Source of the DNA: Candidatus Promineifilaceae bacterium
GTDB lineage: Bacteria; Chloroflexota; Anaerolineae; Promineifilales; Promineifilaceae
Assembly (NCBI GenBank): GCA_041987425.1
Contig: JBHIWP010000002.1
Location: 18,608 to 82,607, forward strand
Direction: 5' to 3'
DNA: 64,000 nt
Shown: positions 1 to 64,000 of the stretch, piece by piece
Numbering within the stretch: position 1 is the first letter of the stretch
Layout: every line of letters begins with the position of its first letter
Translations under genes and position numbers: made by a program
The notes under the pieces: model-generated
Told to the model about the DNA's origin: nothing
The model's input: the letters and a program-made list of their open reading frames with translations, nothing else
Database searches by the model: none

Positions 1-384
1 AGAAGCGGTGTAACTGGTGTCAGTTGGCCCGTATTGGTCGTAGTGGTTCCACCCCGGCCCCTTTGCCACATAGGTAACGTGGCGTGTGCCTTCTGGCCGC
101 AGGTTGACAATAAACCCGCTTACGCAGTTGTAAACAAGGTTATCGAACACGGCCAAGCGCTGCATAGCCGCGCCGGTTCCTCCAAAGTGGTTATTCATTC
201 TGTCGTATTGGTCAAGCCTGCTTTTGGCCTTGACAGTGACTTCAATGCGTTCCACTCCGTAGGTTTCAACATTCCAACGAATACCGATTCTTTCCGGCCG
301 TTCAAACGCCTCGGACATCGTGCCCCCGGTAATGTGATACCCTGTAAAACTCGTCGTGAATCGCCCTGCAAATAACTCGCTCAT
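1..384 (-). CDS. Phage tail structural protein, N-terminal part only (gene continues past the window edge)
   Basis: Hand translation shows the minus-strand frame open from the ATG at 384-382 to base 1 (128 codons). It is absent from the ORF track. The ATG overlaps the TAA of the upstream tail gene as TAATG. Confidence 0.5.
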   Translation of the reverse strand, partial: MSELFAGRFTTSFTGYHITGGTMSEAFERPERIGIRWNVETYGVERIEVTVKAKSRLDQYDRMNNHFGGTGAAMQRLAVFDNLVYNCVSGFIVNLRPEGTRHVTYVAKGPGWNHYDQYGPTDTSYTAS

Positions 385-2351
385 TATGTTGTCCCTAACA
401 GGTGGCGAGTGCGGGGGGTAACATAAAATGTAAAGTTTCCTGTTTCTGTAAGTGTGAAAACCTCGTCATCTGACGAGGTGCCAAATACAAACAGGACAAA
501 TCGGGTCATCTTGTTACCCGCGACTACTGAAGTTATGTGACCGCTAGGATTAAGCAATACGCCTTGGGGGGTTTGCACCGTGGGGGGTACAGCAGTAGTA
601 TAAAACCCTGCAACGCTGTAATCATCACTCCGGCATATCACAATTTCTTTCCCTGCCGGGAAAAGCCAAACCCCGTCTATTTCAAACGTAGCCGAAGATG
701 TCGGAATATCCTCAATCGTTATTCTGTATTCAGCATTCCCGCTTCCTGGATAGGTATCAGGATCGAATATATCATCTGGGTAAAGCCCCCTCGCATCTAT
801 CAATCCCAAGTCTATAATTTCCCAATTCCCCCCGGTATTAGGTAGGCTCTGCGTTGTCTCCTGGTGTGACACAAACCCACGATACAGAGCAGATGCAATA
901 GTAGGCGTTGTGTTGTTGTTTCTGATAAGCCCAAACGCACGTAATGGGGTGCCCCACTGTAGGCGTGCGGCGTCTGTAGAAAAGCGGTAATAAATTGTTG
1001 TTGTATTTGTTGCGCTGGATGGTGACGTAAGTCTGATGTAATTTCCACCCGATACAGTCCCGCTTTGCGTGGATATGGTAACTCCACCACTTACGGCACT
1101 GGTTGAAAATTCATCACTATCAATAAAATGCTTGTAGTCAGCGACTAGGTATTTACCATCTGACAACGTGCTTAATATCATGGTTTTAGGCGACGTTGCA
1201 TAACCTGCTGGATTATTGTAAATCTTTACCAACGCATCACTATCCCCCGGCACGCCCCACACATCGACGTAGTTAATCCGCTCCTCATTACTGCTGGTTG
1301 GATCGTAACGATTACGGATTGCCGACGTGCTACACCACGCATCCGGCGCGGTGGTGGTGCCGGTTTGCAAGTACGCCCCGTCAATCACAAAATTGCTTAC
1401 CTTTGTGGCGCTGCTTGCCGTCCGTGATATGTAAAACCTGAAATTCGCGTTGGTATTGGTTCCGCTCAACACATAGCGATACCATGTACCAGATGCCCCC
1501 GTCGCTGTTTTGTCGTAGCCTGTTGGCGTGGTCGGGTTAAATGTCTTGCTCTGTATGCTTACGTCGCTGCCATCGGTCAAGTTGATTGTCACCGGGTCGC
1601 CAAATAAACCACCGCTGGTCAACCCCCTTAACCACACATAGGCTACGGCCTGAGTGCTTGATGACGCCGTAACAGATGCGCGTATTCCCTCATTGGTACT
1701 GGTGTCTGTAGCGATTTGCTGCGCTTTACCACCGATCAGGTAATTCACCACGCTGATATTTGTTGTAGGCGTCCCTACGGCCGTCCACCCGTCGGCCAAG
1801 CCGTCGCTATTAGAATCCTCTAGGAAGTGTGGCGAGCTTGCTAAATCGTTACGCAGGGTTATGGCCGCCCCCTCGCCTAATGGCTCCACAACGAGCATAA
1901 TCACCACGCCCAAAGCCCGCTTGTTAAGGATTGACGCAGGAGTGTAGTAACTGCCTGAATCATCCACATCGCCATAGATAACGGTGGCGTCGGTGTAGTT
2001 GGTCATGCCGTCTAACTGTATGCGTAAATAAATCTTATCTACATCACCATCAGCATGATAACGTGCGGCCTGTTGGTCCTCTCCGTCAATCCATCGTTTA
2101 ATGGGGGCAATGGTATTAATCACGTCGTCCCAATCATCCCCGTACACGTTCTTTGTTAGAAAGACCGTCCGCGGCTGGTTTTTCAGGCGTATCAACTTCG
2201 GTGATCCATTGTCCGGTCTATGCCATAAAACATCAGGCTCCCCGGCTTCCACTTTTAAGCCGTAATGTAGTTTAAAATCGGCCTGGCTTGCCGCATCATA
2301 AACAAATTCGTAATCCGTGGTTCCGTCGCTCAGTATGACGCTATCGGCCAT
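384..2351 (-). CDS. Phage tail protein directly after the tape measure (distal-tail / baseplate-like, Ser/Thr-rich C-terminal half)
   Basis: 655-aa ORF whose start abuts the tape measure stop. The position is typical of Dit-like proteins. No motif was recognised by eye. Confidence 0.5.
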   Translation of the reverse strand: MADSVILSDGTTDYEFVYDAASQADFKLHYGLKVEAGEPDVLWHRPDNGSPKLIRLKNQPRTVFLTKNVYGDDWDDVINTIAPIKRWIDGEDQQAARYHADGDVDKIYLRIQLDGMTNYTDATVIYGDVDDSGSYYTPASILNKRALGVVIMLVVEPLGEGAAITLRNDLASSPHFLEDSNSDGLADGWTAVGTPTTNISVVNYLIGGKAQQIATDTSTNEGIRASVTASSSTQAVAYVWLRGLTSGGLFGDPVTINLTDGSDVSIQSKTFNPTTPTGYDKTATGASGTWYRYVLSGTNTNANFRFYISRTASSATKVSNFVIDGAYLQTGTTTAPDAWCSTSAIRNRYDPTSSNEERINYVDVWGVPGDSDALVKIYNNPAGYATSPKTMILSTLSDGKYLVADYKHFIDSDEFSTSAVSGGVTISTQSGTVSGGNYIRLTSPSSATNTTTIYYRFSTDAARLQWGTPLRAFGLIRNNNTTPTIASALYRGFVSHQETTQSLPNTGGNWEIIDLGLIDARGLYPDDIFDPDTYPGSGNAEYRITIEDIPTSSATFEIDGVWLFPAGKEIVICRSDDYSVAGFYTTAVPPTVQTPQGVLLNPSGHITSVVAGNKMTRFVLFVFGTSSDDEVFTLTETGNFTFYVTPRTRHLLGTT

Positions 2352-4744
2352 TATTTAAGGCTCCCTATTCTTTCCACTACCATTGTGGAAACGCGATCAG
2401 CAAAGCGCTGGCCGCTTTCCCCCGGCCGTTGCACCACCTGCCCTATCAATGGCGCGTTAATGTTTATACCGCCCATGCCCCCGGCCTGTGACGATGGAAT
2501 AACATTCCCCTGATCGCCGGGGATAAGAAAAAGACGGCCGTTTTGTTTAAATAATTCTGGCTGGTTGAATTCCCCCACCTGTGACATTTCGCCGGGTAGC
2601 AAAAAGTTCCCTAGTGCGCTTTGCTTGCCATGCTCTTTTACGTCACCGCTACCGCTGCCTAAATCGCTGGCAGATGAGGTGTTAACGGTTACACTGGCAG
2701 AAGCGTGACGGCCGTCAACACTATCTAGCAGCCCCTTCACTTCTCGGAGGCGTTCAATAGAATCGCCCATCATAAGCGTATAGGCCGTTTCTACTTTCTG
2801 CGGCGTGGCATTAAACAGGTCAATAAGCTGCTGCTGCTTTTCGGCCGCTGCTATAGCCGATTCAGCAGTTCTAAATGTCCCACTGGCAAGCAAATCAAAA
2901 GCAATGCCTGCAACCTCGGCACTCACACCACCGTCAACAACTATCTGATTTAGTTCCTCAATGGCGATACGCGCCTCAGCCGCCTGTAATCGCATGTCGG
3001 CTTCTGCCTGCGTCAATTCCCCAATAGCAACGGCGTAATCTAGGGTGCGCTGTACGGCGTCTGGGTCTGGCGACAATTCGGCCAATGCCAGCGCCCCTTC
3101 AAATGCAAGGTCTCTGTATGAATCAATGATTGCTTGATTAGCGGCGTCTATGGCTTCCTGTGCGGCTTCTGCGTCCTCTATGCTGCCTGTATAAGCCGAT
3201 CCCACCGCGCCCTGTGAGGCTTCAAGGTCGGCACGCTGGGCAATAAGCGCCTCCCGCTGGCTGTCGCTCAAATCACCTTGCAGGGCTTGATACGCTGCCA
3301 GCCATTCCGCGCTGCCCTCATTGACAGTATTGAGAATTTCACGCATAGCCCCCTTTTGCTCATCGCTCAAATCGGCGGCAAGCTGGGAATTAATAGAGGC
3401 AATCTGCCCGCTATTATCGCGTGTGGTCTGTACCCACTCCCCTTGTGCCCCGGCAAGCTGTTGCTGGGCTTCTAGCAGTTGGCTAATCGCATCGCCAGCC
3501 CCGCCTAAATTTTGCAGTTGCCCTGCTATGGCCTGGCTGTAATTGCGTGCGGCGTTGGCAGCCTCTTGCAAATGTGCGTAGTTCTGGATTAATACCCGGT
3601 CGTAGGATTCACCCTGCGCTACGGCCGCTTCATACGCAGCGGCGGCGGCTAAATTCTCTGCTGAATTGGCTTCAGCAGCGGCGGCAACATCCCGATTGTA
3701 TTGTGCCATCCGATCCATTTGCTCATTAAGCTGCTCGGCTTCCCCTGTTGCTTGCTTTAATGCAACAGCCTGATCGTACCATGCCCGCGTGGTCATGATG
3801 TCAAAGGTATGCACCCCGGCAGCATGTAGCATCTGCTGGTACTCTTCAAAACTACCAGCAGTACGGCCGATGGACTCCATCACCTTTTGCTCACCCTCAA
3901 TTGTGCGGGTTTGCGCTTTGGTGTAATCGCCTGTGGCTTCTGCCATAGCAAGGTTTCTAGCCTCTACATCCTGAATGGCTTTGGAAAAGTCACCGTTTAT
4001 CAATTGCACCCAAGGTAATAACCCTTCTGCTAGATGTTGCTTAAAAGCATCGGTAGATTCCCCCACCTTTACTTCTAAGCGTGCCCAGGCGTCCGCTTGG
4101 CTGTCAACATTGCCTCCCACCTGCTGAATAAGCTGATCGCCAGATTCAAGGACGGCGTTAAGTAACGCAACCTGCTTTTCTTCTGCCGTCAATGCCTCTA
4201 CTGTTTTGCCTAGCTGCTGCGCGTATTTTTCGTTAGCCTCGCCAACCTTGACCACGATACCCAGGTTGTCAAGAATGAGGGGAGAAGCGCGCTTGATACC
4301 TGTAGCGATACTGTCATACAGGAAAGCGGTATCGCCTAATTGCGGATTAAGTTTGTTGGATGCTTTGGCGATTTCTAGCAGCTGCGGCGCATTGGCGGCT
4401 AGTTTCCCGGCAAGCTCATCACTCGCCCCGGCCGTGAGCTTAAGAAGCCCGGCCATAAGGTCAGCTTCCTTGATCGTGCCGCGTGCGGCCGCGCTCATGT
4501 TATCCAGCAGTCCAGGCGTCTTAAAAACTTCCTGATTCATTAGCTCAAATGAATCACGGAGCTGGTTCAGGTTGGCTCCCTCGCGTGATAGGTCAAAGGC
4601 TTTTTTGAACGTGGCCCCCATTGCTACCATGCCAGCAGTTACATTCTTGGCAGTGCCTAGCAAGTCATCAAGGCGTTGCCCGATACCCTTGATAGCATCG
4701 CTCCCTTGATCAACCTGTTTGACAACTAACCTAACTTCTGCCAC
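2351..4744 (-). CDS. Tail tape measure protein
   Basis: 797 aa, Ala/Gln/Glu/Leu-rich and helical. It is the longest tail-module gene and lies immediately downstream of the G/GT chaperone pair. Confidence 0.85.
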   Translation of the reverse strand: MAEVRLVVKQVDQGSDAIKGIGQRLDDLLGTAKNVTAGMVAMGATFKKAFDLSREGANLNQLRDSFELMNQEVFKTPGLLDNMSAAARGTIKEADLMAGLLKLTAGASDELAGKLAANAPQLLEIAKASNKLNPQLGDTAFLYDSIATGIKRASPLILDNLGIVVKVGEANEKYAQQLGKTVEALTAEEKQVALLNAVLESGDQLIQQVGGNVDSQADAWARLEVKVGESTDAFKQHLAEGLLPWVQLINGDFSKAIQDVEARNLAMAEATGDYTKAQTRTIEGEQKVMESIGRTAGSFEEYQQMLHAAGVHTFDIMTTRAWYDQAVALKQATGEAEQLNEQMDRMAQYNRDVAAAAEANSAENLAAAAAYEAAVAQGESYDRVLIQNYAHLQEAANAARNYSQAIAGQLQNLGGAGDAISQLLEAQQQLAGAQGEWVQTTRDNSGQIASINSQLAADLSDEQKGAMREILNTVNEGSAEWLAAYQALQGDLSDSQREALIAQRADLEASQGAVGSAYTGSIEDAEAAQEAIDAANQAIIDSYRDLAFEGALALAELSPDPDAVQRTLDYAVAIGELTQAEADMRLQAAEARIAIEELNQIVVDGGVSAEVAGIAFDLLASGTFRTAESAIAAAEKQQQLIDLFNATPQKVETAYTLMMGDSIERLREVKGLLDSVDGRHASASVTVNTSSASDLGSGSGDVKEHGKQSALGNFLLPGEMSQVGEFNQPELFKQNGRLFLIPGDQGNVIPSSQAGGMGGININAPLIGQVVQRPGESGQRFADRVSTMVVERIGSLK

Positions 4745-5093
4745 TGTTGATACCTACCTTTAATAGCCCCTGTTCTTGCAAGTCGCCTAACAACAAACGC
4801 TCATTGACAGTTAGGCCGGTATTGACCGCTTCTCCCTGCAATGAGCGAAATTTACTGACTACCCGGTGGATGTTTCTCAAGGCTCTCATGCGGGTAAATT
4901 CTGTGTAATCTTGTTCATGTACACCACCGCTACGCGGTAGATGATAATCACCACAGAGCCAGGCCAATTCTAATTCGGGCGGCGGCGTGGCCTTGCTGTT
5001 TACTACACACTGCACCGTCGCCTCTATGAGTTTTTTGGCACGGCCTCCGCTTCTAGGCTGTTCATGTGCCGGGCGGTTTGGTTCCCTACCCAC
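4731..5093 (-). CDS. T-frame ORF of the tail assembly chaperone, expressed as a G-T fusion by -1 frameshift
   Basis: The ORF overlaps the 3' end of the G ORF in the -1 frame and has no convincing start of its own. The slippery A AAA AAC lies in the overlap. Confidence 0.65.
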   Translation of the reverse strand: MGREPNRPAHEQPRSGGRAKKLIEATVQCVVNSKATPPPELELAWLCGDYHLPRSGGVHEQDYTEFTRMRALRNIHRVVSKFRSLQGEAVNTGLTVNERLLLGDLQEQGLLKVGINSGRS

Positions 5094-5335
5094 ATCACAA
5101 CATCAGCAACCTTAGGGCCGGTTTCTTTTTCAAGGTCTAGCTCTTTCGGATTAGGAACGGCTTCGCACTCCCATTCCTGATAAAGCGCCAAAAAGCCCAG
5201 CCATGTGCGAATGTAAACATCCTCACTGAAAAACCCGGTGGCATACACGCGCCCTCTGTACCGTAGCTGCTGCCCTACTGTGGGCGCGTCCGGTAATGTG
5301 AAGCGTACGCCTAAATCTTCGTTGGTAAATTCCAT
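5024..5335 (-). CDS. Tail assembly chaperone (gpG-like)
   Basis: Lies between the major tail protein and the tape measure. The start was moved to the ATG at 5335 (MEFTNEDLG...), just after the major tail stop at 5353. Confidence 0.65.
   Translation of the reverse strand: MEFTNEDLGVRFTLPDAPTVGQQLRYRGRVYATGFFSEDVYIRTWLGFLALYQEWECEAVPNPKELDLEKETGPKVADVVMWVGNQTARHMNSLEAEAVPKNS
5030..5036 (-). promoter_or_regulatory. Programmed -1 ribosomal frameshift slippery heptamer A AAA AAC
   Basis: The minus strand reads GTG CCA AAA AAC TCA TAG in the G frame. A -1 slip gives GCC AAA AAA CTC ATA GAG, which matches the 4731..5093 ORF (AKKLIEATV). Confidence 0.65.
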
Positions 5336-5352
5336 TTGTGCCCCCTGATTGA

Positions 5353-5769
5353 TTACAGCGCCACGCTGGTATAGTCGAATCCATCGCCGCTCGTGCTGCG
5401 ATATTCGGCCGTCCATGTTTGCAAGCCTACGGGAATGGATACGCTTACCGTCCCAATATTGGCCTCACCGGTGATGTACTGCCCACTTGCCAGCGTTACC
5501 TCAATCGTTTTGGTGGCACTGGTTCCTGCGGCTGCCAACGGCCCATAAATGCCGCGCGTGGTGCTGTTCATCATGCCCGTAAGCGTGATGCCCTTCACAG
5601 CGCCAATATCACGTTGTTCTGTTCTGTTGCTGTCACCCAGCCCGGTATCTTCCACCAGACCATTACCGCCGTTAATCGTGGCGTTGGTTACATCTCCCGA
5701 AATGGTTGTCAATGTACCGGATGCGTTATCTACCCGGACGCCTGCTACATCACTTAATGCATGGCTCAT
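5353..5769 (-). CDS. Major tail (tube) protein
   Basis: 138 aa, Gly/Thr/Ser-rich and beta-type in composition. It lies immediately upstream of the chaperone pair. Confidence 0.65.
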   Translation of the reverse strand: MSHALSDVAGVRVDNASGTLTTISGDVTNATINGGNGLVEDTGLGDSNRTEQRDIGAVKGITLTGMMNSTTRGIYGPLAAAGTSATKTIEVTLASGQYITGEANIGTVSVSIPVGLQTWTAEYRSTSGDGFDYTSVAL

Positions 5770-5954
5770 TCGTTCACCTCATCACTTTGTTCATATTCGG
5801 CTACGGCCGTTTCCAACCGTGCCAGCTTGGTATGATCGTATGTATCAAAGTGCCCCCCGCGCTCCTGTTGTGCCACAAGCGCCTGTTGTTTCTCTAAAGC
5901 TGCCAAAAGGTCAGCCGGTGCTTTACTCCTGGAAGCTGATCGTGATTTCTTCAT
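5766..5954 (-). CDS. Small phage protein, unknown function
   Basis: 62-aa ORF translationally coupled to its neighbours in the head-tail joining block. Confidence 0.4.
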   Translation of the reverse strand: MKKSRSASRSKAPADLLAALEKQQALVAQQERGGHFDTYDHTKLARLETAVAEYEQSDEVNE

Positions 5955-6369
5955 TTACCGTTCCTATCATCGTCGCTACCAACCACTGCGGCGCGTCCGC
6001 TGGGTTTTGTGTAACCTCATTAACGGCCGTTACCTGTCCCTGCTGTACCGTGTTGCCCGTATCGCCTAAGCGGGGATACTGGTCAAGGTTACTCAGAAGC
6101 GTGTTGTAATTGGCCTCTAAGTTGGTCAAGGTACTGCCATCGTCACGATACTTCTGCCACACCTCAATAATGGTTTGCCATACGTTTTGACGGTTCTTAA
6201 AGGTCAACATCTCCCGCGTATGGCTCCCCGGCTTAAGGATGACATAAACAGAAGCCTTGCCATTATCCAGAATGCGCCAATCTCCCCGGCTGGTGTTGTT
6301 CTCATCGTAGCCACTAATGGCCCGAATGCGCGTCAACCAAAGCGCCTCTACATCACTGTAGCCACTCAC
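5923..6369 (-). CDS. Head-tail joining / tail completion-like protein
   Basis: 148-aa ORF assigned by position only, between the connector and the major tail gene. Confidence 0.4.
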   Translation of the reverse strand: MSGYSDVEALWLTRIRAISGYDENNTSRGDWRILDNGKASVYVILKPGSHTREMLTFKNRQNVWQTIIEVWQKYRDDGSTLTNLEANYNTLLSNLDQYPRLGDTGNTVQQGQVTAVNEVTQNPADAPQWLVATMIGTVNEEITISFQE

Positions 6370-6875
6370 GGATTGAACATCCTCCGTCTAAACATTGGCT
6401 GCTCTCTCACGGTGCTATCCGGGTCCGTGCGTTCGCCGTGCTTATTCATGGCCGTAAACGTCAAGGCGGCGCTGGCATCGTCGGCAACCGGCACGCCCTG
6501 ATCGGCCCATGACGTTTTACGCTTCTGTACCCATTCAAAAGGGTCATCACCTAACAGTTCCCACAGTGACTTGTAGCGGCTATCCTCAGAGCCATCAAAA
6601 CCTGTGGAGCGGGCGGTAAGCTCTACCATTGCCGCCGCCCGCGTCCTTACCCACAGGTCACAAGAGCGTTTTGGACTGGCAACCGAAACGGGAATAGAGA
6701 AGCCGCAAGCGCGTATAGCGTCGTTTAAATCGGATGAAATGTCGTCAATAAATGCTTCCACTTCTGACAGGCTGGGACGGCTGGCCTCATCAAATGTTGA
6801 TTCGCCGTCCAAAAAGTGCCGGGTCAATGCCAGCACATCAGCCACAGAAGAGTAAGAACTCGCTTCAATCGCCAT
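6366..6875 (-). CDS. Head-tail connector/adaptor-like protein
   Basis: 169-aa ORF with 4-nt overlap coupling. Assigned by position in the module. Confidence 0.4.
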   Translation of the reverse strand: MAIEASSYSSVADVLALTRHFLDGESTFDEASRPSLSEVEAFIDDISSDLNDAIRACGFSIPVSVASPKRSCDLWVRTRAAAMVELTARSTGFDGSEDSRYKSLWELLGDDPFEWVQKRKTSWADQGVPVADDASAALTFTAMNKHGERTDPDSTVREQPMFRRRMFNP

Positions 6876-7078
6876 TATTTCTTGCCGCTGCCCCGCTTGC
6901 TCTTGCTGCTGCTTTTGGCCTTAGGCGTTACGTTTTCCTCTACAATGACGCCCTGTCGCCACATGCGGCGGTGGGCTTCGTTACCTGCCTCAAAAGCGAA
7001 TAGATCGCCTGCTTTGTATTCTTTGCCGTCAATTTTGGCCGTCTGGTGTGCTACTCGGAACTGAACGTAATCACTCAT
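6875..7078 (-). CDS. Small phage protein with a Lys/Ser-rich basic tail
   Basis: 67-aa ORF coupled to its neighbours. Confidence 0.4.
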   Translation of the reverse strand: MSDYVQFRVAHQTAKIDGKEYKAGDLFAFEAGNEAHRRMWRQGVIVEENVTPKAKSSSKSKRGSGKK

Positions 7079-11213: not shown

Positions 11214-11222
11214 TGTGCCCCC

Positions 11223-11280: not shown

Positions 11281-11298
11281 AGTAAAAGTCAGAATCGA

Positions 11299-50536: not shown

Positions 50537-50542
50537 GGATTT

Positions 50543-56037: not shown

Positions 56038-56084
56038 TGATGCGTGAAGCGCAAGAGATGAGGTCTGTTACGCTTCACGCATCA
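56038..56084 (-). repeat. 14-bp perfect hairpin built of GTGAAGC-type heptamers, after the multihaem cytochrome gene
   Basis: TGATGCGTGAAGCG at 56038-56051 and CGCTTCACGCATCA at 56071-56084. Preceded by GTGAAAC GTGATGC GTGAAGC phasing. No U-tract. Confidence 0.55.
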
Positions 56085-56095
56085 GGCAGGAATTG

Positions 56096-57970
56096 TTATC
56101 TATGAATGAAAGGGAGGTAGGTTTCTAGCCCAATAGCTTTTTGAGCCATGATGGTTGGTTGAGAACGGCCGTTTTCCGCCCACAGATCATACAAAATCTG
56201 GCCGTTGCTGCTGGCGTCGCCAAAAAAAGGACTCTCATTGCGTAAAAACTCAATGTACTCGCGTGAAGCCACCTGATGCACCAGCCGCACTATCACAACT
56301 TCGGGTTCGGCAGGCAGGGAGTAGGTGACCGTGTCCCAGTACTGACCATCAGCGTAGCGGCTGGGGTCTGGCGCGCCGTTGGTGTATGGCGCAGCCCCAG
56401 CCGCGGCAAAGGCAGCAAACTCGTAGCCACGCGGTGGGATGCGGTTGTCGTGCAAGATCTCGTTGTTCAGAATGAAGTGGAACGATTCGCCTGCGGGAAC
56501 GCCAAGCTGAGCCGCCAGGTCCGCCGAGATGCCGTGCTTGGCTTCGTATAGCTGAAGGTCACCGTCTTCAGTGAGAAGGCCAGTGGCTGCATCGTATGCG
56601 CCGGAGCTATAAATGAGGCTGCCGGCGGCGTCGTATGCTTCTACCTGCAGCCACATGCGTCGGCCTTCAATGTAGCCAGTGGGCAGCTTATGGCCGCTGT
56701 TGTTGGTCACCGTCACCACGAGCTGTGTGCCCGTCAGGGAAATGTCTAGCTCCGCGGCATTTTGCAGCATGGCCGTGGCCCGGTCAATACCGGCGTTAAG
56801 TGCCTCCAGCCGCTCCTCGGCGTAGGGGCCGGTGGTGAAGGTTGCGCTGAACACGGGATGCTGCGGAATAATTTGCGGCACCCAGTTGTTGGCGCCAGTG
56901 AGATCATGTAGGGGCAGATCACTGCGCTCTGGAACGCTGGTGGCATTGCCAAAGAATGCCGCGCCAACGCCGGTGACATCCTGCATGTGGCAGTCCTGGC
57001 AGGTGGAGACGCTGCTTTTGTTGCCGCCAAACTGCGGCAGGGCAACACCTTGCGGCGTGTTGAAGTCACTGAGCCGCCACTCGCTGTAGGTGCGCTCAAC
57101 GGGGAACATGCTGGTGGTGTCGGTGAACGGCTGGTTGACGTCGTTAAGAACGTAGCTTTGGCTGGGCTCATCCCAGGTGAGCAGCGGGTTGCTGATGTCG
57201 TGGCAGCTGCCGCACAGGGCAGCATCCTGGTGGAAGGGCGATTCAAGGGTATCCAGGGCGCCTGCGGCCGGGTTGTGGGGGTCGAAGCCGTTGTCGGTAA
57301 CGACGTCAAAGGGGCCGCGCCGGTAATCGGCCGTATCCACGATGAGGCTAGCGTTGCCGGGAATGGTTACCGGGCTGGTGATGGCGGCCAATACGGTCAG
57401 GTCGCGGTCGGGGTTTTCGCTGCTGTACAGCGGATCGACCATGCGGTGACACACTTCGCACTGCACGCCCTCCTGGTCAACGGCCGTCATTGCCGAGCCG
57501 TCTGTGGTGGAAGAACGGCCGTCTAGCCAACCGCGCGGCAAGTGACAGCGCAGGCAAAACTCCCCAGCAAAGGCGGCATCGGCATTGGCAATATCTAGCG
57601 CGGCATAAAATACGGGGTCGCGGCCCGATTGAGCCATCATGCTGCCCGCCCAGCCGGTCCACGGCTCATAATCAGCAGGCTGGTTTACCTGGCTGCTGTA
57701 GTTGGCGTGGCAGCCAATGCACTGCTCTGGCGAGTCGATGTCGAAGGTACCAGTGTGCAACGGCTGCGTGCCGGGCTGGAAAAAGTCTAGCATGGTGGTA
57801 GTAGAAAGCGTGGGGGTAGGCCCGGTTCCATTAGGACTCAATTGTGGATGATTTGCAGGCAGTGCGGCCTGTGCGGCGGGCGTGCTGGTTTGTTTTAGCG
57901 TGGCAAAAAGGGCGGCAATGATGGCGAGCGTGAGGCTGGTGGAAAAGAAGATAATTAATATTTTACGCAT
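56096..57970 (-). CDS. Secreted multihaem c-type cytochrome (five CxxCH) with a C-terminal YLPFIHR tail
   Basis: Signal peptide. CIGCH, CLRCH, CEVCH, CGSCH, CQDCH. Confidence 0.75.
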   Translation of the reverse strand: MRKILIIFFSTSLTLAIIAALFATLKQTSTPAAQAALPANHPQLSPNGTGPTPTLSTTTMLDFFQPGTQPLHTGTFDIDSPEQCIGCHANYSSQVNQPADYEPWTGWAGSMMAQSGRDPVFYAALDIANADAAFAGEFCLRCHLPRGWLDGRSSTTDGSAMTAVDQEGVQCEVCHRMVDPLYSSENPDRDLTVLAAITSPVTIPGNASLIVDTADYRRGPFDVVTDNGFDPHNPAAGALDTLESPFHQDAALCGSCHDISNPLLTWDEPSQSYVLNDVNQPFTDTTSMFPVERTYSEWRLSDFNTPQGVALPQFGGNKSSVSTCQDCHMQDVTGVGAAFFGNATSVPERSDLPLHDLTGANNWVPQIIPQHPVFSATFTTGPYAEERLEALNAGIDRATAMLQNAAELDISLTGTQLVVTVTNNSGHKLPTGYIEGRRMWLQVEAYDAAGSLIYSSGAYDAATGLLTEDGDLQLYEAKHGISADLAAQLGVPAGESFHFILNNEILHDNRIPPRGYEFAAFAAAGAAPYTNGAPDPSRYADGQYWDTVTYSLPAEPEVVIVRLVHQVASREYIEFLRNESPFFGDASSNGQILYDLWAENGRSQPTIMAQKAIGLETYLPFIHR

Positions 57971-58061
57971 ACGATCCCTCTACGATTTGAGTTGAGAGTA
58001 CCCGGATGAGTACGGCCGTATTATAATCCCCCGCGCAAATCATGACTATTAAGGGAAGAAT

Positions 58062-59849
58062 ATGTCTATAACGAATCATAAACATGGACTAAAGTTGCTA
58101 ATTTTGTTTTTGCTGGTTGGCGTGTGGGCGTGGCCGGAAACGGCCGTTTCCTCTGTAACTGCTCAGTCGGCCCGCGACCCCCGCTTTGGCGCGGTAGAGT
58201 CGTTTTGGGCACCGGGCGAAGCGGCCGAACTGGGCGTCGGCTGGGAGCGTATCCTCTTTTACTGGAACGAAATCCAGCCTACCGGCCCCAACGACTGGAA
58301 CACCCTGCATGTCCACGAAGAGTGGCTGGCAGAAGCGCGGGCGCAGGGGCGGCAGGTGACGGGATTGCTCAAAAATACGCCCACCTGGGCCACGGACGGC
58401 ACGCCAGCCTCCGGGGTGCCGCGCGGCCTCTATTTGCCAATTGATGATCCCGGCAATCTGTGGGCCAACTACGCCCGGCGCGTGGCCTCCTACTACAGCG
58501 CGCACGGCGTGCACAACTGGATTATCTGGAACGAACCAGACATTGCCCCAGACGTCTATGGGCATGAGTTCAGCGGCTCGATGGCCGATTACTATCAGCT
58601 GGTGAAGGTGGCTTACCTGGCTATTAAGCAGGTGGACCCCAACGCCAAGATTCACCTGGGCGGCATGACCTACTGGCACGACCCAAGCTGGCTGGGCCGC
58701 TTCCTAAGAATGGTTGCGGAAGATCCTGATGCGGCGGCCAACAACTACTATTTCGACATCATCTCGCTGCACATCTACTTTCGCCCGGAGACGGTTCCCC
58801 AAATTGTGGGCAACGCCTTTGCTGCGCAGCAGCAGGCTGGTATTCCGCTGAAGCCGGTGTGGATTAATGAGACGAATGCCCGACCCAGCACAGACCCGGA
58901 GTGGCCGGTGCAGGTGCAGGCGTTTGAGCTGGATTTGGAGCAGCAGGCGTGGTACATCGTGCAGGCGTACGCCCTTGGTTTTTACTCGGGCGCGGGGCGA
59001 ATTTCGGTGTACAAGTTGATTGATATCAATATTTCGCCCGGCGAAGAGTCGTGGGGGTTGATACGGCCGTATGACTTCAGCAAGCGCCCTGCCTTTTTTG
59101 CCTATCAGAACACAATCAAATACCTGGCCGGGTTTACCTACCCGGTGCAGCGAGAGCAGGCGGGTAACTACACCATTGTGCGCTTTAACCGGCCAGAGGG
59201 CACCACGCGCGTGCTCTGGGCGCGCACGGCCAGCAGCGCGACGCTCAACGTGCCGGCTTTGGCGGACGCGGCCGTTTTGGTTGACCCGATCACCGGGGCC
59301 GAAACGCCCATAACTCCAACCGGGGGCAGCTACGAGATTCGTTTGAATGGCGCGCGCTGCGCTGGAGAGTGCTACATGGGTGGCGCGCCGGTCTTCCTGG
59401 TAGAAGCCGGGGTTGGCGGTGAAGGTGGCTCTACCGCGCCGCCGGTAGTGTCGGCGGCAAGCACGCCAGCGGCTGGGGCAACCGGTACCGATGGGTCCCA
59501 AACGGCGGCCGGGACGCCTATTCCCACCGAGCCGTCTGCCCCAACCGAAACGCCGTATCCGACGGCCACAAACATGGTGCCCGTGCCTAAACCTTCCAGC
59601 ACGCCGACCGCAACGAATACGGCCGTACCACCCACAGAAACAGCACCCGCCACGCAAGAGGCGGCCATAGTGCCTACGGCTACGGAAGCGGTTGTTTCGG
59701 CTGCTGGAGATGATGGCGCAATTGTAGAAGCTGGGGAAGAAGAAACGGCCGTAATCGAGGCTCCAGCACCTAACCTTGGCATTTGGCTGCTGGGGGGCGC
59801 AGGTCTTGCTGCGCTGCTGGCTGGTTTCGTTTGGCTCCGCCGCCGCTAG
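58062..59849 (+). CDS. Secreted glycoside-hydrolase-like TIM-barrel protein (clan GH-A-like) with a Pro/Thr/Ala linker and a C-terminal TM anchor ending RRR
   Basis: Signal peptide. IIWNEPD and WINETN motifs resemble the acid/base and nucleophile strands. C-terminus LGIWLLGGAGLAALLAGFVWLRRR. Confidence 0.5.
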   Translation: MSITNHKHGLKLLILFLLVGVWAWPETAVSSVTAQSARDPRFGAVESFWAPGEAAELGVGWERILFYWNEIQPTGPNDWNTLHVHEEWLAEARAQGRQVTGLLKNTPTWATDGTPASGVPRGLYLPIDDPGNLWANYARRVASYYSAHGVHNWIIWNEPDIAPDVYGHEFSGSMADYYQLVKVAYLAIKQVDPNAKIHLGGMTYWHDPSWLGRFLRMVAEDPDAAANNYYFDIISLHIYFRPETVPQIVGNAFAAQQQAGIPLKPVWINETNARPSTDPEWPVQVQAFELDLEQQAWYIVQAYALGFYSGAGRISVYKLIDINISPGEESWGLIRPYDFSKRPAFFAYQNTIKYLAGFTYPVQREQAGNYTIVRFNRPEGTTRVLWARTASSATLNVPALADAAVLVDPITGAETPITPTGGSYEIRLNGARCAGECYMGGAPVFLVEAGVGGEGGSTAPPVVSAASTPAAGATGTDGSQTAAGTPIPTEPSAPTETPYPTATNMVPVPKPSSTPTATNTAVPPTETAPATQEAAIVPTATEAVVSAAGDDGAIVEAGEEETAVIEAPAPNLGIWLLGGAGLAALLAGFVWLRRR

Positions 59850-59871
59850 GTTTCGTTTAAAAGTAATGGAC

Positions 59872-59946
59872 GCAGATTCTCCTGATTGACCTGATTTTGA
59901 TCGCTTTTCAATCAGATCTATCAGGAGAATCTGCGTTTTATTTTTT
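59872..59946. terminator. Bidirectional intrinsic terminator between convergent genes
   Basis: 15-bp perfect arms GCAGATTCTCCTGAT at 59872-59886 and ATCAGGAGAATCTGC at 59920-59934. GTTTTATTTTTT follows on the plus strand. An inner CTGATT/AATCAG pairing is also present. Confidence 0.65.
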
Positions 59947-61528
59947 ACAGCGTGATCAGTTTTACCTGGGTGATGGCCGGGATTTTTACCAGGGCATCAA
60001 TAACCTCTTTGCCAGGTTGGCTGTCCAAATTGATGAAGGAAAGGGCGTGACCGCCGGGCCTGTCTCGGCCCATGCGCCATTCGGCGATGTTGACTTCGTA
60101 GGCGGCCAGGATGGTGCCCACCTGCCCAATGACGCCGTGCACGTCTTTGTTTTGCATCACCAGCACGTGGCCGTCTGGCCGGGCATCTAGCTTATAGTCA
60201 TCCACCTGCACTATGCGCGGCTCCACACCGCCAAATAGCATTCCGGCCAGCGTGCGTTCCCCGCCGTCCCAGGTGACCCGGCAAGAGATGAGATTCGAGT
60301 AGTCGAGCGAGCTGGCTGCCTTGGTTTGGGCCACGCTGATGCCGTTTTCTTCCGCTAGCAGGGGGGCGTTGATGTAGTTGACCTGCTCGCTGATTGATTT
60401 TTCGAGAATGCCTTTTAGCAGTCCAGCGGCGATGGGCTTGATTAGCTCATTAACCGTGTCGCCTCGTGCCTCGATCTCAACGCGGCGAATGGCGCCATCG
60501 GCCAAATAGCAGTGCAGGCGACCCAGCTTTTCACTGAGTTCCATATACGGCCGTGTCTCGGCAAAGTCTGGCCCGGCCTGGAAGGGCAAATTAATGGCGT
60601 TGCGGAAGTCGGTGCCGCGCAGCGCATCCAGCACCTGATCCACGATTTGGGTGGCGACATCGCGCTGAGCTTCCTCAGTGCTGGCGCCCAGGTGGGGCGT
60701 GTGCAGCACGTTGGGCAGGCCAATGAGCGGACTGCTTTCCGGTGGTTCCTTTTGATAGACGTCGAGAGCGGCCGTTCGAATGCGTCCATTTTTCAAGCCT
60801 TCAGCCAGGGCTTCTTCATCGACGAGCTTGCCACGAGCGGCATTGATCAAAATGACGCCCGGCTTCATCTGGCTAATCGTTTGGGCATTGATTATTTTCT
60901 CGGTTTCTGGCAGTAGGGCGGTATGCAGGCTGATGTAGTCAGACTGGGCCAATAGATCTTCCAGGTCAACGAGCGTCACGTTTAACTCTTGCCCCACCTC
61001 TTCAGATACATATGGATCAAAGGCCAGAATTTCCATGCCAAATGCCTGGGCTCGCTTGGCTACCAAACGACCGATTCGGCCAAATCCGATAATGCCCAGC
61101 GTTTTACGATATAGCTCGGTGCCTACAAATTGTGAGCGTTTCCACTCACCTTCTTTCAGTGAGGCGTGAGATTGTGCCGTGTGGCGGCTGGCGGCCAACA
61201 TTAAGGCAATCGCCTGCTCGGCGGTGGCAATGCTGTTGGCCTGTGGCGTGTTCATCACAATGATGCCGCGCATGGTTGCCGCGCGTACGTCCACGTTGTC
61301 TACGCCAATTCCCGCCCGACCAACCACCTTGAGATTGGTACCAGCGGCCAAAATTTCTGCATCTGCCTTGGTGCCGCTGCGAATGATAAGCGCATCGTAT
61401 TCCGGCAGAATGGCCATAAGCTCTTCTTTGCTCAGGCCAGGTTTCATGTCGTATTGGGCGTCTTTGGCCAGATCAAGCCGATCTAGCCCTGCTTGCCCTA
61501 GCTTGTCTGAGATTAATATTTTGAACAT
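59945..61528 (-). CDS. serA: D-3-phosphoglycerate dehydrogenase (long form with ASB/ACT domains)
   Basis: GIIGFGRIGRLVA NAD fold, the HTPHLGAST catalytic His region, and a C-terminal ACT-like domain. Confidence 0.9.
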   Translation of the reverse strand: MFKILISDKLGQAGLDRLDLAKDAQYDMKPGLSKEELMAILPEYDALIIRSGTKADAEILAAGTNLKVVGRAGIGVDNVDVRAATMRGIIVMNTPQANSIATAEQAIALMLAASRHTAQSHASLKEGEWKRSQFVGTELYRKTLGIIGFGRIGRLVAKRAQAFGMEILAFDPYVSEEVGQELNVTLVDLEDLLAQSDYISLHTALLPETEKIINAQTISQMKPGVILINAARGKLVDEEALAEGLKNGRIRTAALDVYQKEPPESSPLIGLPNVLHTPHLGASTEEAQRDVATQIVDQVLDALRGTDFRNAINLPFQAGPDFAETRPYMELSEKLGRLHCYLADGAIRRVEIEARGDTVNELIKPIAAGLLKGILEKSISEQVNYINAPLLAEENGISVAQTKAASSLDYSNLISCRVTWDGGERTLAGMLFGGVEPRIVQVDDYKLDARPDGHVLVMQNKDVHGVIGQVGTILAAYEVNIAEWRMGRDRPGGHALSFINLDSQPGKEVIDALVKIPAITQVKLITL

Positions 61529-61685
61529 ACGTCTCCCTTTGCTTGGTAAGTTGTTTGGTGCCAGGCGATTTGGGAATTATTGATTGTGGGTAAAAGTACA
61601 AAGGAATTATAGTCGGGGTTGGTTGTGCGGCAAGCAGCGCGTGGAATTGGGAAATCAACGTCTGCTTTACGTTACTTCCAGTTGA

Positions 61686-62210
61686 TCACAATGTTTGTAA
61701 GAGTTGCTTACACTGCTCTACAGTTAGGGAAACCAGAGCGCCACCAGTAAAGCGGACATCCTCAGTAACTTCACGTAGGGCGAATAAAGGATGGGGTACT
61801 GACATTAGGAGGCTGACGTCTGGCTGCTCAATTTCAGCCAAGATCAGCCCGGTGAGGTGACCCATGAACTGATCAATGCTGAATTGGAAACGGCCGTCTG
61901 CTAACTTATACCGCTTCTTGACCAGTTTTTGAGCAGGCAGCGTTTCTAACAGTGTATAGCTGGCGTCGTCCAGATAAAAGTTGGTGATAGTCGTGGCATA
62001 AGCGGTTTGATCTTCGGCCTGGTATTTTTGCGTTAGCTTGCGGGCGGTCACCTGTCCGTCGGCATTGGTCATGCGGCGCAGGCGCAGCGGCGTGCCAGAA
62101 ATATAGCGATCTTCAATGAGCTGATAATCCTGGCTGTTCTCGAGCGCATTCGGCAGGGTGGCCAAAAGCCAGCGCCGTTCGCATTCGATCTGGGCATATT
62201 TGTGGGCCAT
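61686..62210 (-). CDS. CYTH-domain protein
   Basis: The N-terminal IECERRWL (ExExK-like) start is typical of CYTH/CYTH-like triphosphatases. Confidence 0.55.
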   Translation of the reverse strand: MAHKYAQIECERRWLLATLPNALENSQDYQLIEDRYISGTPLRLRRMTNADGQVTARKLTQKYQAEDQTAYATTITNFYLDDASYTLLETLPAQKLVKKRYKLADGRFQFSIDQFMGHLTGLILAEIEQPDVSLLMSVPHPLFALREVTEDVRFTGGALVSLTVEQCKQLLQTL

Positions 62211-62257
62211 TTAGCAGGTCCAAGTCGTTTATGGTGACAAAGTGCGCCGATTCTACC

Positions 62258-62779
62258 TTAGGCGCTACTGAACAAAGGATGATAAAAAACAGTGCCGCGC
62301 CTGTCTTTCAAGGCGCCAGGCACCAACTCTTTGACCATAAACACGTCATCTGGGACGTCGAACTGGCTGCGCAGCCCATATGGGGATGAGGGCGAAAAGC
62401 CGAAGCGTGGGTAATAGGTTGAATGCCCCAGAACAAACGCCAGTTTGTACCCCACCTGCTCGCAGGCAGCCAGTCCGGCCCAGCAAAGCTCTGAACCAAT
62501 ACCTTTATTTTGATGTTCTGGGGCAACTGCCACCGGGCCCAGGGCAACGGCCGTAAACTCCCCCTCGTCATTTTTTACCGTCACGGGCGAAAACAGGATG
62601 TGCCCCACGATTTCACCGTCCAGCTCAGCCACGAGGGAAATGAGGTCTACACCGCCCTGCTGCAAATTTTGCACCAGCTCTGCTTCGGATGGACGATTGG
62701 CTGCTGCTTCTACTGCGAATACCTGGTCGGCGTCTGCGGCCGTTTCTGGTCGAATTTTTAGCGTCATAGAAGCAATCAT
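62258..62779 (-). CDS. GNAT family N-acetyltransferase
   Basis: VAVAPEHQNKGIGSEL acetyl-CoA binding motif. Confidence 0.8.
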   Translation of the reverse strand: MIASMTLKIRPETAADADQVFAVEAAANRPSEAELVQNLQQGGVDLISLVAELDGEIVGHILFSPVTVKNDEGEFTAVALGPVAVAPEHQNKGIGSELCWAGLAACEQVGYKLAFVLGHSTYYPRFGFSPSSPYGLRSQFDVPDDVFMVKELVPGALKDRRGTVFYHPLFSSA

Positions 62780-62815
62780 ACTGCATTGGCGGGCATGGGG
62801 CGAGACAACTCCTGC

Positions 62816-63352
62816 TCATCGAACAAAAGAGCGTTTGCCAATGCTTCTTTCTCGCTTGGGCCTCAATAGCTTCGGAGCATTTTTGCGCAGCAGCCATTGC
62901 GTACCGATCATCGTCCCGAGCATAGCCAGGAGCAAGACGGCCGTGTAGCCAGCTAAAATTTGGGCATACCCCAACGCCAGGCTGCGCCAGGCACCCAAAA
63001 CCAGCGCCGTGTACCAGGAAACGGCCGAAACCGCGCCAAAGACGGAAATGCGTGGCAGCTTTTGGGCCAGACCATTTATATGAAACGGCTGGTGCCTGAA
63101 GGCAGCTTTTTGCAGCAAGGGGAACAGCTTTACGTGCATAATGCCGCCGTTTAACGTGGCGATGAGCACAATGGTCATTTTGGCAAAAAAGCGCTGATTG
63201 ACGCTGCCGCTCAAAATGATAAGCCCCAGTCCGGTGGCCGTTAACAGCATCAGCCCACCAATCACAATGCCCGAAGCCACTTTTAGCAAGCGAAATTCAG
63301 CTTTTTCGATACGGCCGTTTCGCGGTAGTCCAGTGAGATTATCTCCAACCAT
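62816..63352 (-). CDS. Integral membrane protein, unknown function
   Basis: 178 aa with 4-5 hydrophobic helices. Confidence 0.5.
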   Translation of the reverse strand: MVGDNLTGLPRNGRIEKAEFRLLKVASGIVIGGLMLLTATGLGLIILSGSVNQRFFAKMTIVLIATLNGGIMHVKLFPLLQKAAFRHQPFHINGLAQKLPRISVFGAVSAVSWYTALVLGAWRSLALGYAQILAGYTAVLLLAMLGTMIGTQWLLRKNAPKLLRPKRERSIGKRSFVR

Positions 63353-63406
63353 CCGGCGGATAAACCGGAGTGAGGAGAACCTCGCGAATGAATAAGATTG
63401 AATTCG

Positions 63407-64000
63407 CTAAACCAATAGCCATCGCCGGTGACCGCTGTTCATACTTTTTTTACCCACCAGCTCAGGCAGCAACCGCTTAAGACTACGATGCTCACGACAC
63501 CAGTTGTAAACTGTCATGCCCCACCAACCCATCGCCGCTTTGGTTTCGCCTTTTTTGGCAAAAGCCAGAGTTTTGCGCACCTGCGCCGCACTCATCAAGC
63601 GGGCCGTGCCGTTGCGCCGCTCGATAGCCGAGGTGTTAGGCACATGGTAGCCCAGTCGGTCCAGAGCTTGCTCAATCCGCTTTTGACTGCCATGGACATA
63701 GCGGATTTCCACTTCTTTGAGTCGATAACCACTGTGGTGCTTGATGATTTGCACGTGAGCCGCCGTCCGAGGAATGCGAAACCGCGCTTTAGGATACGGA
63801 CCGCGTGTGCCTTGTCGCGGTGGGTAGTAGGCAGTGCCGAATATCTCCGGGAACAAGGTACGATACGCCGCCACCCCATCAGTGAACAAGGCAATCTCAT
63901 GACGATTGTGCAGACGTACCGCGCCATCTTGGAGCAAACAACGAATCAAGACCTCGTCTCGCGTTCCCTGGACGTGCGCCAAAATGAACTTGCTTGCCGG
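63407..64000 (-). mobile_element. DDE-type IS transposase gene, C-terminal part (open to the window edge)
   Basis: NTSAIERRNGTARL ... YNWCREHRSLK is typical of the C-terminal part of DDE transposases. The frame stays open past the TTG that the ORF track used as a start. Confidence 0.55.

Follow-up and report, generated by a model that had tools for sequence, protein, structure and literature searches.

The palindromic octamer ACGGCCGT occurs 92 times in 64,000 bases of a Candidatus Promineifilaceae genome (Chloroflexota; GenBank assembly GCA_041987425.1, contig JBHIWP010000002.1, positions 18,608 to 82,607), the whole stretch analysed here and hereafter called the window, and it is a highly iterated palindrome (HIP)-type element that is new in sequence, core, and phylum. 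On each replicon of these cells, a directional and sequence-specific force works at the level of DNA, site by site; it occupies almost all codon-compatible positions, overriding weak protein constraint through amino-acid replacement at tolerant positions, and afterwards keeps the sites unchanged as the synonymous positions around them become randomised. The hexamer CGGCCG stays constant, and the outer A...T, together with weak symmetric flanks (GGAA...TTCC), varies between lineages. Our preferred interpretation, to which we give a probability of about 0.55, is that the octamer is a clade-specific mark of the HIP type on all resident DNA, read by a dimeric protein derived from a restriction-modification system, likely an orphan methyltransferase, and spread by a methylation-linked ratchet.

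Abundance and coding context of the octamer

A pattern search returned the 92 starts listed by the first-pass annotation of this DNA, with none missing and none extra. Its estimate that chance would supply about one copy was borne out by 100 dinucleotide-preserving shuffles (mean 0.98, maximum 4) and by the order 0 Markov expectation of 1.2, the higher orders giving 1.15 (order 1), 2.4 (order 2), 4.7 (order 3), and 14.7 (order 4), so that 92 copies stand against roughly one. The observed/expected ratio is 76-94. The window has 1437 copies per Mb, and pooling it with the motif-bearing relatives described below gives 432 copies in 256 kb, or 1690 per Mb. ACGGCCGT is the top 8-mer of the window; the next palindromic octamer has only 4 copies, and the other frequent 8-mers are all words that overlap ACGGCCGT. 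The CGGCCG hexamer occurs 144 times, 92 of them flanked by A...T, and is enriched about 7-fold, as against about 90-fold for the octamer. Neighbours differing at an outer position are present in modest numbers, namely ACGGCCGC and GCGGCCGT (12 + 10 = 22), TCGGCCGT and ACGGCCGA (7 + 3 = 10), and CCGGCCGT and ACGGCCGG (5 + 2 = 7), in close agreement with the earlier by-eye estimates of roughly 20, 10, and 7, and each one-off variant at an inner position has 0-3 copies. The accompanying claim that the whole octamer is favoured, and not just the CGGCCG core, is correct for this genome but does not extend to its relatives, in which the hexamer is the common denominator. The copies are spaced slightly more evenly than random (coefficient of variation 0.91), with a deficit of very short gaps, and AACGGCCGTT is found 20 times. 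Around them lies a weak symmetric preference of the form GGAA-ACGGCCGT-TTCC, with 40-55% agreement per position, present in frames 0 and 1 (gene orientation) and weaker in frame 2, as expected from a symmetric reader of duplex DNA; since the flanks show nothing beyond this preference, the view that the octamer is not part of a larger dispersed repeat stands.

Between 88 and 90 of the 92 copies lie in open reading frames (ORFs), with frames 0, 1, and 2 holding 42, 36, and 12 copies and both gene orientations being used, and the remaining 2-4 are intergenic. The peptide readings given earlier for 49097, 50402, 36580, 37087, 38827, 42087, 43866, and 39399 were all correct; four copies had been called intergenic, and 36220 and 58012 indeed lie outside any ORF, whereas 22689 and 23551 are only probably so, because the sole ORFs that overlap them are short mechanical ones on the opposite strand. 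Permuting synonymous codons within genes left 12.3 +/- 3.1 copies (maximum 22) against the 90 observed in ORFs. In the pooled motif-bearing relatives, copies number 0.9-1.0 per kb of non-coding DNA (48% GC) and 1.9 per kb of coding DNA (54.5% GC), and the fold-enrichment relative to composition is similar in the two. The synonymous shuffles, the use of three frames, and the non-coding enrichment uphold the proposal that the motif is not a codon or peptide artefact, and ACGGCCGT is a DNA-level feature.

Peptide contexts able to accommodate the octamer are close to saturated. Thr-Ala-Val is encoded by ACGGCCGT in 42 of 47 cases (15% expected from codon usage), [N/H/D/Y]-Gly-Arg in 36 of 45 (about 5% expected), and x-Arg-Pro-[FLSYCW] in 12 of 20 (about 6% expected). 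These tripeptides are themselves in excess: T-A-V occurs 47 times against 8.3 expected, its reverse V-A-T reaching 12, and [NHDY]GR occurs 45 times against 13 expected. Compatible tripeptides are thus 3-6 times over-abundant, and ACGGCCGT has therefore reshaped protein sequences. Motif-free sister lineages and outgroups contain 2-3 T-A-V per roughly 6000 aa, none of them encoded by ACGGCCGT, and motif-bearing loci contain 16-27 each, except for the short locus L010 (11); the effect on the proteome is thus measurable, T-A-V being 6-8 times commoner than in sister lineages.

Relatives, dialects, and mobile elements

The comparison set consisted of 80 genomic loci retrieved through HisD. Best HisD matches are 84-87% identical and place the host in the Promineifilaceae/"Ardenticatenaceae" group of the Chloroflexota, near Candidatus Leptofilum; exact look-ups of window proteins matched only short Logan contigs (SRR32696350, SRR30684387). 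Of the 13 closest loci, 12 (L001-L010, L012, and L016) have ACGGCCGT as their most frequent palindromic octamer, at 0.8-2.5 per kb; in the thirteenth, L011, its density is 0.5 per kb and it comes just after GCGGCCGC, and it is at background level in all remaining loci. A HisD neighbour-joining tree, to be read with the caution due to a single gene, unites the motif-bearing genomes in one monophyletic group, with the motif-free L013 as its sister. One-off variants in this in-group are enriched 3-5-fold at positions 1 and 8 only, the inner ones being at or below expectation. Locus L011 (uncultured Anaerolineae, CALECP010000110.1, 1-7594) carries 50 CGGCCG against 2.8 expected (18-fold) in almost any flanks, the basal L009 prefers W-CGGCCG-W, and several viral contigs are intermediate. 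Together with the outer-position variants, these dialects identify the EagI-type hexamer as the constant element and the outer base as a lineage-specific layer. A metagenome scan with the L011 HisD for further hexamer-dialect genomes gave a best match only 56% identical.

Neighbouring lineages treat the same hexamer in the opposite way. Among motif-free Chloroflexota, CGGCCG is observed 0 times against 5.4 expected in L015, 1 against 14.9 in L037, 1 against 9.0 in L041, 2 against 14.4 in L025, 4 against 11 in L013, and 3 against 8.6 in L017, and this avoidance next to a motif-rich clade suggests EagI-type restriction pressure. Within the in-group (the window, L001, L003, L004, L005, L007, L010, L012, and L016 pooled) it is other palindromes that are avoided, including CTGCAG (12 observed, 88 expected), GTCGAC (4 and 22), CCCGGG (18 and 77), GGGCCC (7 and 30), and CGATCG (11 and 41), with GATC at 0.62 of expectation; the avoidance of these other 6-bp palindromes is an ordinary restriction-avoidance footprint. 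The same loci yielded other repeated words. The 21 kb of L047 (Trueperaceae metagenome-assembled genome (MAG), CBDCCT010000002.1) contain 26 copies of GCTCGAGC where composition predicts about 0.7, with CTCGAG flanked by G..C in 26 cases and by G..G in 13, and this looks like another HIP-like octamer, with an XhoI-type core, in the Deinococcota; its main reading is x-Leu-Glu (17 of 26 such contexts), and it is thus less saturated than ACGGCCGT. Non-palindromic 8-mers repeated 11-21 times, CTTGTCCT in L008, CCCCCATC in L054, and TACCAGTT in L072, are probably local tandem or dispersed repeats.

Orthologue alignments, proposed earlier as a way to see substitutions that create the motif, reveal both the creation and the upkeep of sites. 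In codon alignments of his-region genes, the window shares 76-88% of its motif sites with L001, L003, and L016, and fourfold-degenerate sites in the same alignments are just 44-57% identical. At same-peptide positions, the 8-mer is identical at 91-100% of motif sites vs 21-34% for control 8-mers, GC-matched ones included. With regard to creation, 19 of the 24 sites with outgroup data have a compatible peptide in no motif-free outgroup, and the orthologous outgroup 8-mers are mostly 2-5 positions away from ACGGCCGT. Examples of the replacements involved are Q/E-A-V to T-A-V in HisD, T-H-V to T-A-V, and E-G-K to D-G-R.

The motif is not confined to chromosomal DNA. The prophage half of the window (1-32000) holds 37 copies (1.16 per kb) and the chromosomal half 55 (1.72 per kb), and saturation is alike in the two, at 17/20 vs 25/27 for T-A-V and 14/19 vs 22/26 for x-G-R; every in-group locus is saturated in like manner. 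In IMG/VR relatives with an 82% identical terminase (TerL) the density is 1.15-1.6 copies per kb, most copies sitting at codon positions shared with the prophage, and a phage relative with a 68% identical terminase has 0 copies in 18.7 kb. The existence of phage relatives with and without the motif, together with the equal prophage saturation, indicates that the mark follows the host and not the phage lineage. When pairs of copies spaced 10-40 nt apart were searched for, many more viral or mobile contigs came up at 2-3.7 per kb, some of which have clear phage genes; their very high densities are biased upward by this choice of close motif pairs. In Pfam and PHROG scans, the densest of these encode a DnaC-like loader, a tape-measure-like M23 protein, and a terminase-like protein, and several of their proteins have no matches. 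The contig with the highest density, L110 (IMGVR_UViG_3300033417_000002, 1-13185; 49 copies in 13 kb), is labelled viral; with genes for FtsK/SpoIIIE, an SLT transglycosylase, and a MoxR-like AAA protein, it is perhaps a conjugative or integrative element and not a phage.

Two DNA methyltransferases are encoded by the prophage. The first (22709-23527(-)) belongs to the N6_N4 family (PF01555) and has an SPPY motif, which makes it probably an N4-methylcytosine enzyme. Copies of ACGGCCGT lie on either side of its gene, at 22689..22696 (13 nt past the stop) and 23551..23558 (24 nt upstream of the ATG), and two one-off copies (ACGGCCGC) lie within it. The closest homologues of the enzyme (49-58% identity) are on motif-free phage contigs of 29-59% GC, and because these homologues on other phages are not tied to the motif, the flanking copies are maybe a coincidence. 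The second (27273-28196(-)) is of the Dam type (PF05869) with an N-terminal extension, and the same protein is present on Logan contigs from SRR32696350 and SRR30684387. A regular-expression search for 5-methylcytosine and N4/N6 methyltransferase motifs found nothing further in about 0.5 Mb of motif-rich loci.

Sites and genes of the window

The prophage (1..32300, minus strand) extends past the window start and runs from tail genes through head and packaging genes to replication genes. Its products include a tape measure, a major head protein, a protease, a portal, a large terminase, a DnaC-like loader, and a VRR-NUC nuclease (28972-29448(-)) besides the two methyltransferases, and it ends with a tyrosine integrase (31256-32221) adjoining tRNA-Met (32367-32438). 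From the tail end, the first copies of the octamer read T-A-V at 1777..1784 (frame 0; ORF 384-2351(-)) and, in the tape measure gene (2351-4744(-)), N-G-R at 2534..2541 and D-G-R at 2708..2715 (both frame 1). The gene call is uncertain for 5803..5810 (frame 2; mechanical ORF 5549-6109(+)) and for 6023..6030 (T-A-V, frame 0). ORF 7334-7849(-) has P-R-P-F at 7522..7529 (frame 2) and T-A-V at 7632..7639, ORF 7836-8846(-) has T-A-V at 8056..8063 and 8503..8510 and Y-G-R at 8211..8218, and ORF 8846-9613(-) has Q-R-P-F at 9295..9302 and I-R-P-F at 9544..9551. Two copies, T-A-V at 10172..10179 (ORF 9592-10524(-)) and D-G-R at 10754..10761 (ORF 10696-10944(+)), are common to phage L082. T-A-V is read at 13887..13894 (ORF 13853-14320(-)) and 14962..14969 (ORF 14301-15068(-)). 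The portal gene (15065-16591(-)) contains N-G-R at 15248..15255, 15506..15513, and 16547..16554 and D-G-R at 16181..16188, the last three sites by position being common to L081/L082. In the terminase gene (16591-18105(-)), Y-G-R at 16963..16970 and Q-R-P-S at 17217..17224 are common to L081-L083, the latter being absent from L084.

Towards the integrase, T-A-V is encoded at 19319..19326 (ORF 18907-19581(-)), 21316..21323 (ORF 20700-21344(-)), and 25127..25134 (ORF 24544-25452(-)), N-G-R at 20586..20593 (ORF 20037-20612(-)), and N-G-R and D-G-R at 25521..25528 and 26121..26128 (ORF 25455-26225(-)). The Dam-type methyltransferase gene has T-A-V at 27541..27548, N-G-R at 27723..27730, and D-G-R at 28080..28087, the VRR-NUC gene T-A-V at 29033..29040 and 29264..29271, ORF 30073-30447(+) T-A-V at 30196..30203, and the integrase gene, on the plus strand, T-A-V at 31688..31695.

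The chromosomal part (32301..64000) carries the his operon (hisG, hisD, hisC, and neighbours), serA, a Ser/Thr kinase with tetratricopeptide (TPR) repeats, multihaem proteins, and two tandem universal stress protein (Usp)-domain paralogues. ORF 32862-35747(-) contains seven copies, T-A-V at 32905..32912, 34333..34340, 34351..34358, and 35467..35474, N-G-R at 33258..33265 and 34071..34078, and K-R-P-F at 34829..34836, and the next copy, 36220..36227, is intergenic. In the kinase ORF (36279-38939(+)) are D-G-R at 36580..36587, H-G-R at 37087..37094, and Y-G-R at 38827..38834, the last two with the motif in L003 as well. ORF 38953-39954(-) has H-G-R at 39364..39371 (conserved in L001, L003, and L016) and E-R-P-S at 39399..39406, ORF 40440-40766(-) has T-A-V at 40717..40724 (conserved in 5 relatives), and ORF 41204-42031(-) has D-G-R at 41984..41991 (conserved in 6). 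In ORF 42045-42785(-), D-G-R at 42087..42094 and N-G-R at 42372..42379 correspond to E-G-K and D-G-L in outgroups, and a further N-G-R is at 42738..42745. T-A-V at 42993..43000 (ORF 42857-43528(-)) is followed by ORF 43615-44211(-), with T-A-V at 43673..43680, 44078..44085 (T-H-V/I in outgroups), and 44108..44115 (T-G-V in other taxa), Y-G-R at 43735..43742, and G-R-P-Y at 43866..43873 (conserved in 8 relatives). The his genes carry T-A-V at 45024..45031 and 45099..45106 and N-G-R at 45302..45309 (hisC, 44333-45481(-)), T-A-V at 47156..47163 (hisD, 45973-47361(-); conserved in 9 relatives, Q/E-A-V in outgroups), and N-G-R at 47998..48005 and Y-G-R at 48136..48143 (hisG, 47365-48444(-)).

The tandem paralogues (48809-50536(+) and 50543-52282(+)) are about 575 aa long, each with a C-terminal Usp domain, and have ACGGCCGT at equivalent places (codon offsets 816/819 and 1593/1605). 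The first reads T-A-V at 49097..49104, 49454..49461, 49625..49632, and 50402..50409 and the second at 51362..51369 and 52148..52155. After L-R-P-Y at 52490..52497 (ORF 52293-52667(+)) come two large proteins whose weak matches are to di-haem/MauG-like and MtrC-like multihaem cytochromes; they may be part of an extracellular electron-transfer system, and they have no relation to ACGGCCGT. The gene for one (52680-55910(-)) has Y-G-R at 53286..53293, N-G-R at 53694..53701 and 55143..55150, T-A-V at 53716..53723, and D-G-R at 54726..54733, and that for the other (56096-57970(-)) has N-G-R at 56165..56172, T-A-V at 57480..57487, and D-G-R at 57515..57522. Beyond the intergenic copy at 58012..58019, ORF 58062-59849(+) has T-A-V at 58140..58147, 59619..59626, and 59745..59752 and I-R-P-Y at 59063..59070, serA (59945-61528(-)) has T-R-P-Y at 60547..60554, ORF 61686-62210(-) has D-G-R at 61890..61897, ORF 62258-62779(-) has T-A-V at 62547..62554, and ORF 62816-63352(-) has T-A-V at 62937..62944 and N-G-R at 63311..63318.

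Candidate explanations and known systems

Under the genome-mark interpretation, duplex ACGGCCGT would be recognised by a symmetric, presumably dimeric, protein derived from a restriction-modification system, most likely an orphan CGGCCG methyltransferase, and a second, methylation-dependent step would favour the marked allele. Candidates for that step are the choice of strand during mismatch repair, the route put forward by Elhai for HIP1, and a preference for marked DNA in uptake or recombination, to which recent transformation data on HIP1 point. The outcome of either would be a ratchet turning near-cognate sequences into ACGGCCGT in whatever replicon resides in the cell for a time. Several points weigh against this interpretation. 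The window and about 0.5 Mb of motif-rich loci yielded neither a cognate methyltransferase nor a Vsr-like protein, a nickase, or a competence gene, and the two prophage methyltransferases were rejected as writers, one being of a generic phage N4/N6 type and the other of the Dam type, with neither linked to the motif. The outer A...T of ACGGCCGT misfits Elhai's G-mC-directed mismatch-repair rule, which predicts GCGGCCGC, so that any methyl-directed repair reader must differ here. The hexamer dialect is known from one 7.6-kb contig and a few viral contigs. Finally, a search of the loci for closely related genome pairs returned none apart from identical contigs, and drive is for this reason not separable from direct selection.

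A pure uptake signal, in which competence and homologous recombination spread ACGGCCGT by molecular drive with no methylation, is an explanation we take seriously while judging it improbable. The density of ACGGCCGT, about 1-2.5 per kb, and its observed/expected ratio near 90 lie in the range of the DNA uptake sequences (DUS) and uptake signal sequences (USS) of Neisseria and Haemophilus. Such a signal would also account for the clade-specific dialects, for amino-acid-changing insertions at tolerant positions and sites conserved across species, and for the prophage, which belongs to the transformable chromosome pool; HIP1 itself is now proposed to be one. Known uptake signals, on the other hand, are non-palindromic 9-12-mers that form intergenic inverted pairs, whereas ACGGCCGT is palindromic and shows neither an intergenic excess nor terminator pairing, and an uptake receptor would not predict a restriction-modification core hexamer that neighbouring lineages avoid.

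Direct selection on chromosome structure or repair, without methylation, would maintain an array of binding sites for a recombination-hotspot protein or for an abundant protein that organises the nucleoid or chromosome; this appears less probable still. The palindrome with its symmetric flanks suggests a dimeric binder, the sites are conserved, their spacing is slightly more even than random, and HIP1 has been proposed both for nucleoid structure and as Chi-like. However, selection on density predicts neither the filling of about 85% of compatible contexts nor equal saturation in the prophage and phage relatives, and the palindromic sites parS, NBS (Noc-binding site), SBS (SlmA-binding site), and matS number tens per genome. 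Polar functions such as those of Chi and FtsK-orienting polar sequences (KOPS) need asymmetric, strand-skewed motifs.

Very short patch (VSP) repair, in which a Vsr-type endonuclease and a C5-methyltransferase restore T:G to C:G in the site and slowly enrich it, is a poor candidate. In its favour, the CGGCCG/GGCC core is a typical 5-methylcytosine methyltransferase target, and one-off variants at inner positions match expectation or fall slightly short of it. However, VSP repair fixes just C-to-T at one position of an otherwise complete site and enriches its target less than about two-fold in E. coli, as compared with about 90-fold here. The deamination-type neighbours are not depleted either, with pooled in-group counts of 26 for ATGGCCGT/ACGGCCAT (15-18 expected), 13 for ACAGCCGT/ACGGCTGT (about 10 expected), and 3 for ACGACCGT/ACGGTCGT (5 expected). 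Because outgroup 8-mers are 2-5 changes away, creation of a site needs multiple steps, which makes VSP repair alone unlikely. A trivial cause, be it codon or peptide preference, a dispersed repeat or miniature inverted-repeat transposable element (MITE), or an assembly artefact, can practically be dismissed even though ACGGCCGT mostly reads T-A-V or x-G-R, for the motif occurs in every frame, in genes of either orientation, and in non-coding DNA, synonymous shuffles retain 12 copies against 90, the flanks are unrelated beyond weak single-base preferences, and the same enrichment recurs across different projects, in 13 independent MAGs and in many viral contigs.

For about 30 years HIP1 has defied explanation, and it has been regarded as peculiar to cyanobacteria. 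Tentatively, and with the odds somewhat against it, we propose that HIP-type genome marking arose independently in the Chloroflexota on a different restriction-modification core (CGGCCG vs CGATCG). If so, highly iterated palindromes would be a general, convergent outcome of co-opting an orphan restriction-modification methyltransferase as a genome-wide "self" mark read by the repair, recombination, or DNA-uptake machinery, with resident phages driven or selected to carry the same mark and the outer bases evolving as lineage dialects, from bare CGGCCG via WCGGCCGW to ACGGCCGT. A second system that is quantitatively like HIP1 in another sequence, core, and phylum offers a comparative test, since whatever explains HIP1 should have a counterpart, such as a methyltransferase with its reader, competence machinery, or repair, that tracks the sharp boundary between the motif-bearing clade and L013. 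With this boundary and the dialects, the HIP question can be put to the test through comparative genomics and methylomes of existing long-read MAGs, and the A...T outer bases constrain Elhai's published G-mC model. In practical terms, the motif is a strong signature for binning, for phage-host assignment in activated-sludge and soil Chloroflexota, and for the detection of horizontal transfer.

Full-text literature searches gave no description of this octamer, in line with the earlier impression that it was new, and no HIP-type element described in the Chloroflexota. Several known classes of repeated sequence invite comparison. The element shares its core hexamer with the classical Type II sites of the EagI/XmaIII type (CGGCCG) and contains the HaeIII-type GGCC, but unlike restriction-modification targets it is enriched here while other 6-bp palindromes are avoided. 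Like repetitive extragenic palindromic (REP) elements, bacterial interspersed mosaic elements (BIME), and MITEs, it is palindromic and highly repeated; those, however, are 20-40 nt or longer, imperfect, and extragenic with shared flanks, whereas ACGGCCGT is 8 bp long and lies in ORFs with unrelated flanks. It is not a polar octamer of the Chi, KOPS, or architecture-imparting sequence (AIMS) type, because a palindrome has no orientation and no strand skew. With the DUS of the Neisseriaceae and the USS of the Pasteurellaceae it has in common a genome-wide density of about 1 copy per kb, clade dialects, in-gene placement at tolerant positions, and amino-acid effects. It differs from these asymmetric 9-12-mers in being an exact 8-bp palindrome with symmetric flanks, and from the DUS, with its excess of inverted terminator pairs, in that 2-4 of 92 copies are intergenic and non-coding density is half that of coding DNA; the uptake role of DUS/USS has been shown experimentally, whereas ACGGCCGT is known here from sequence alone.

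The closest likeness is to HIP1 (GCGATCGC, cyanobacteria), and the proposal that the two are formally the same phenomenon is supported by density, ratio, saturation, orthologous conservation, and the bias of variants towards outer positions. Both are exact 8-bp palindromes made of a 6-bp restriction-modification-type core and one symmetric outer base, dispersed as single units in all frames and in non-coding DNA. The 1.4-2.5 copies per kb and observed/expected ratio of 76-94 of ACGGCCGT fall within the published range of the HIP class (Robinson 1995), 300-2700 copies per Mb and 55-228 (PMC4390886). That class also includes alternative HIPs (Elhai 2015, PMC4390886), and lineage-specific variants exist in both. 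HIP1 sites are conserved beyond control palindromes and constituent codons (Xu 2018; PMC5861425), just as orthologous sites of ACGGCCGT are conserved beyond codon conservation. One-off variants of HIP1 mainly differ at the first or last base, its core hexamer being a methyltransferase target, and those of ACGGCCGT are likewise found mainly at the outer positions (3-5 times enriched). Near-saturation of compatible contexts was measured for both motifs: the positive control L076 (Pseudanabaena, from the HisD set) has HIP1 at 1.78 per kb, with GCGATCGC encoding A-I-A in 18 of 18, [CGRS]-D-R in 14 of 15, and x-R-S in 5 of 6 cases. For ACGGCCGT, equal saturation of prophage and phage relatives is shown in addition. 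The two differ in core (CGGCCG, not CGATCG) and in host phylum; the core of ACGGCCGT lacks GATC and so, unlike that of HIP1, has no Dam-type layer, and the cognate methyltransferases are known for HIP1, whereas none was found in the roughly 0.5 Mb of motif-rich loci. Proposed roles of HIP1 include nucleoid structure and a Chi-like function, and it is now proposed as an uptake signal; recent preprints report that natural transformation increases more than 100-fold with its methylated form (10.1101/2024.09.10.611283) and that its abundance is correlated with pilus and competence genes (10.64898/2026.06.24.733823).

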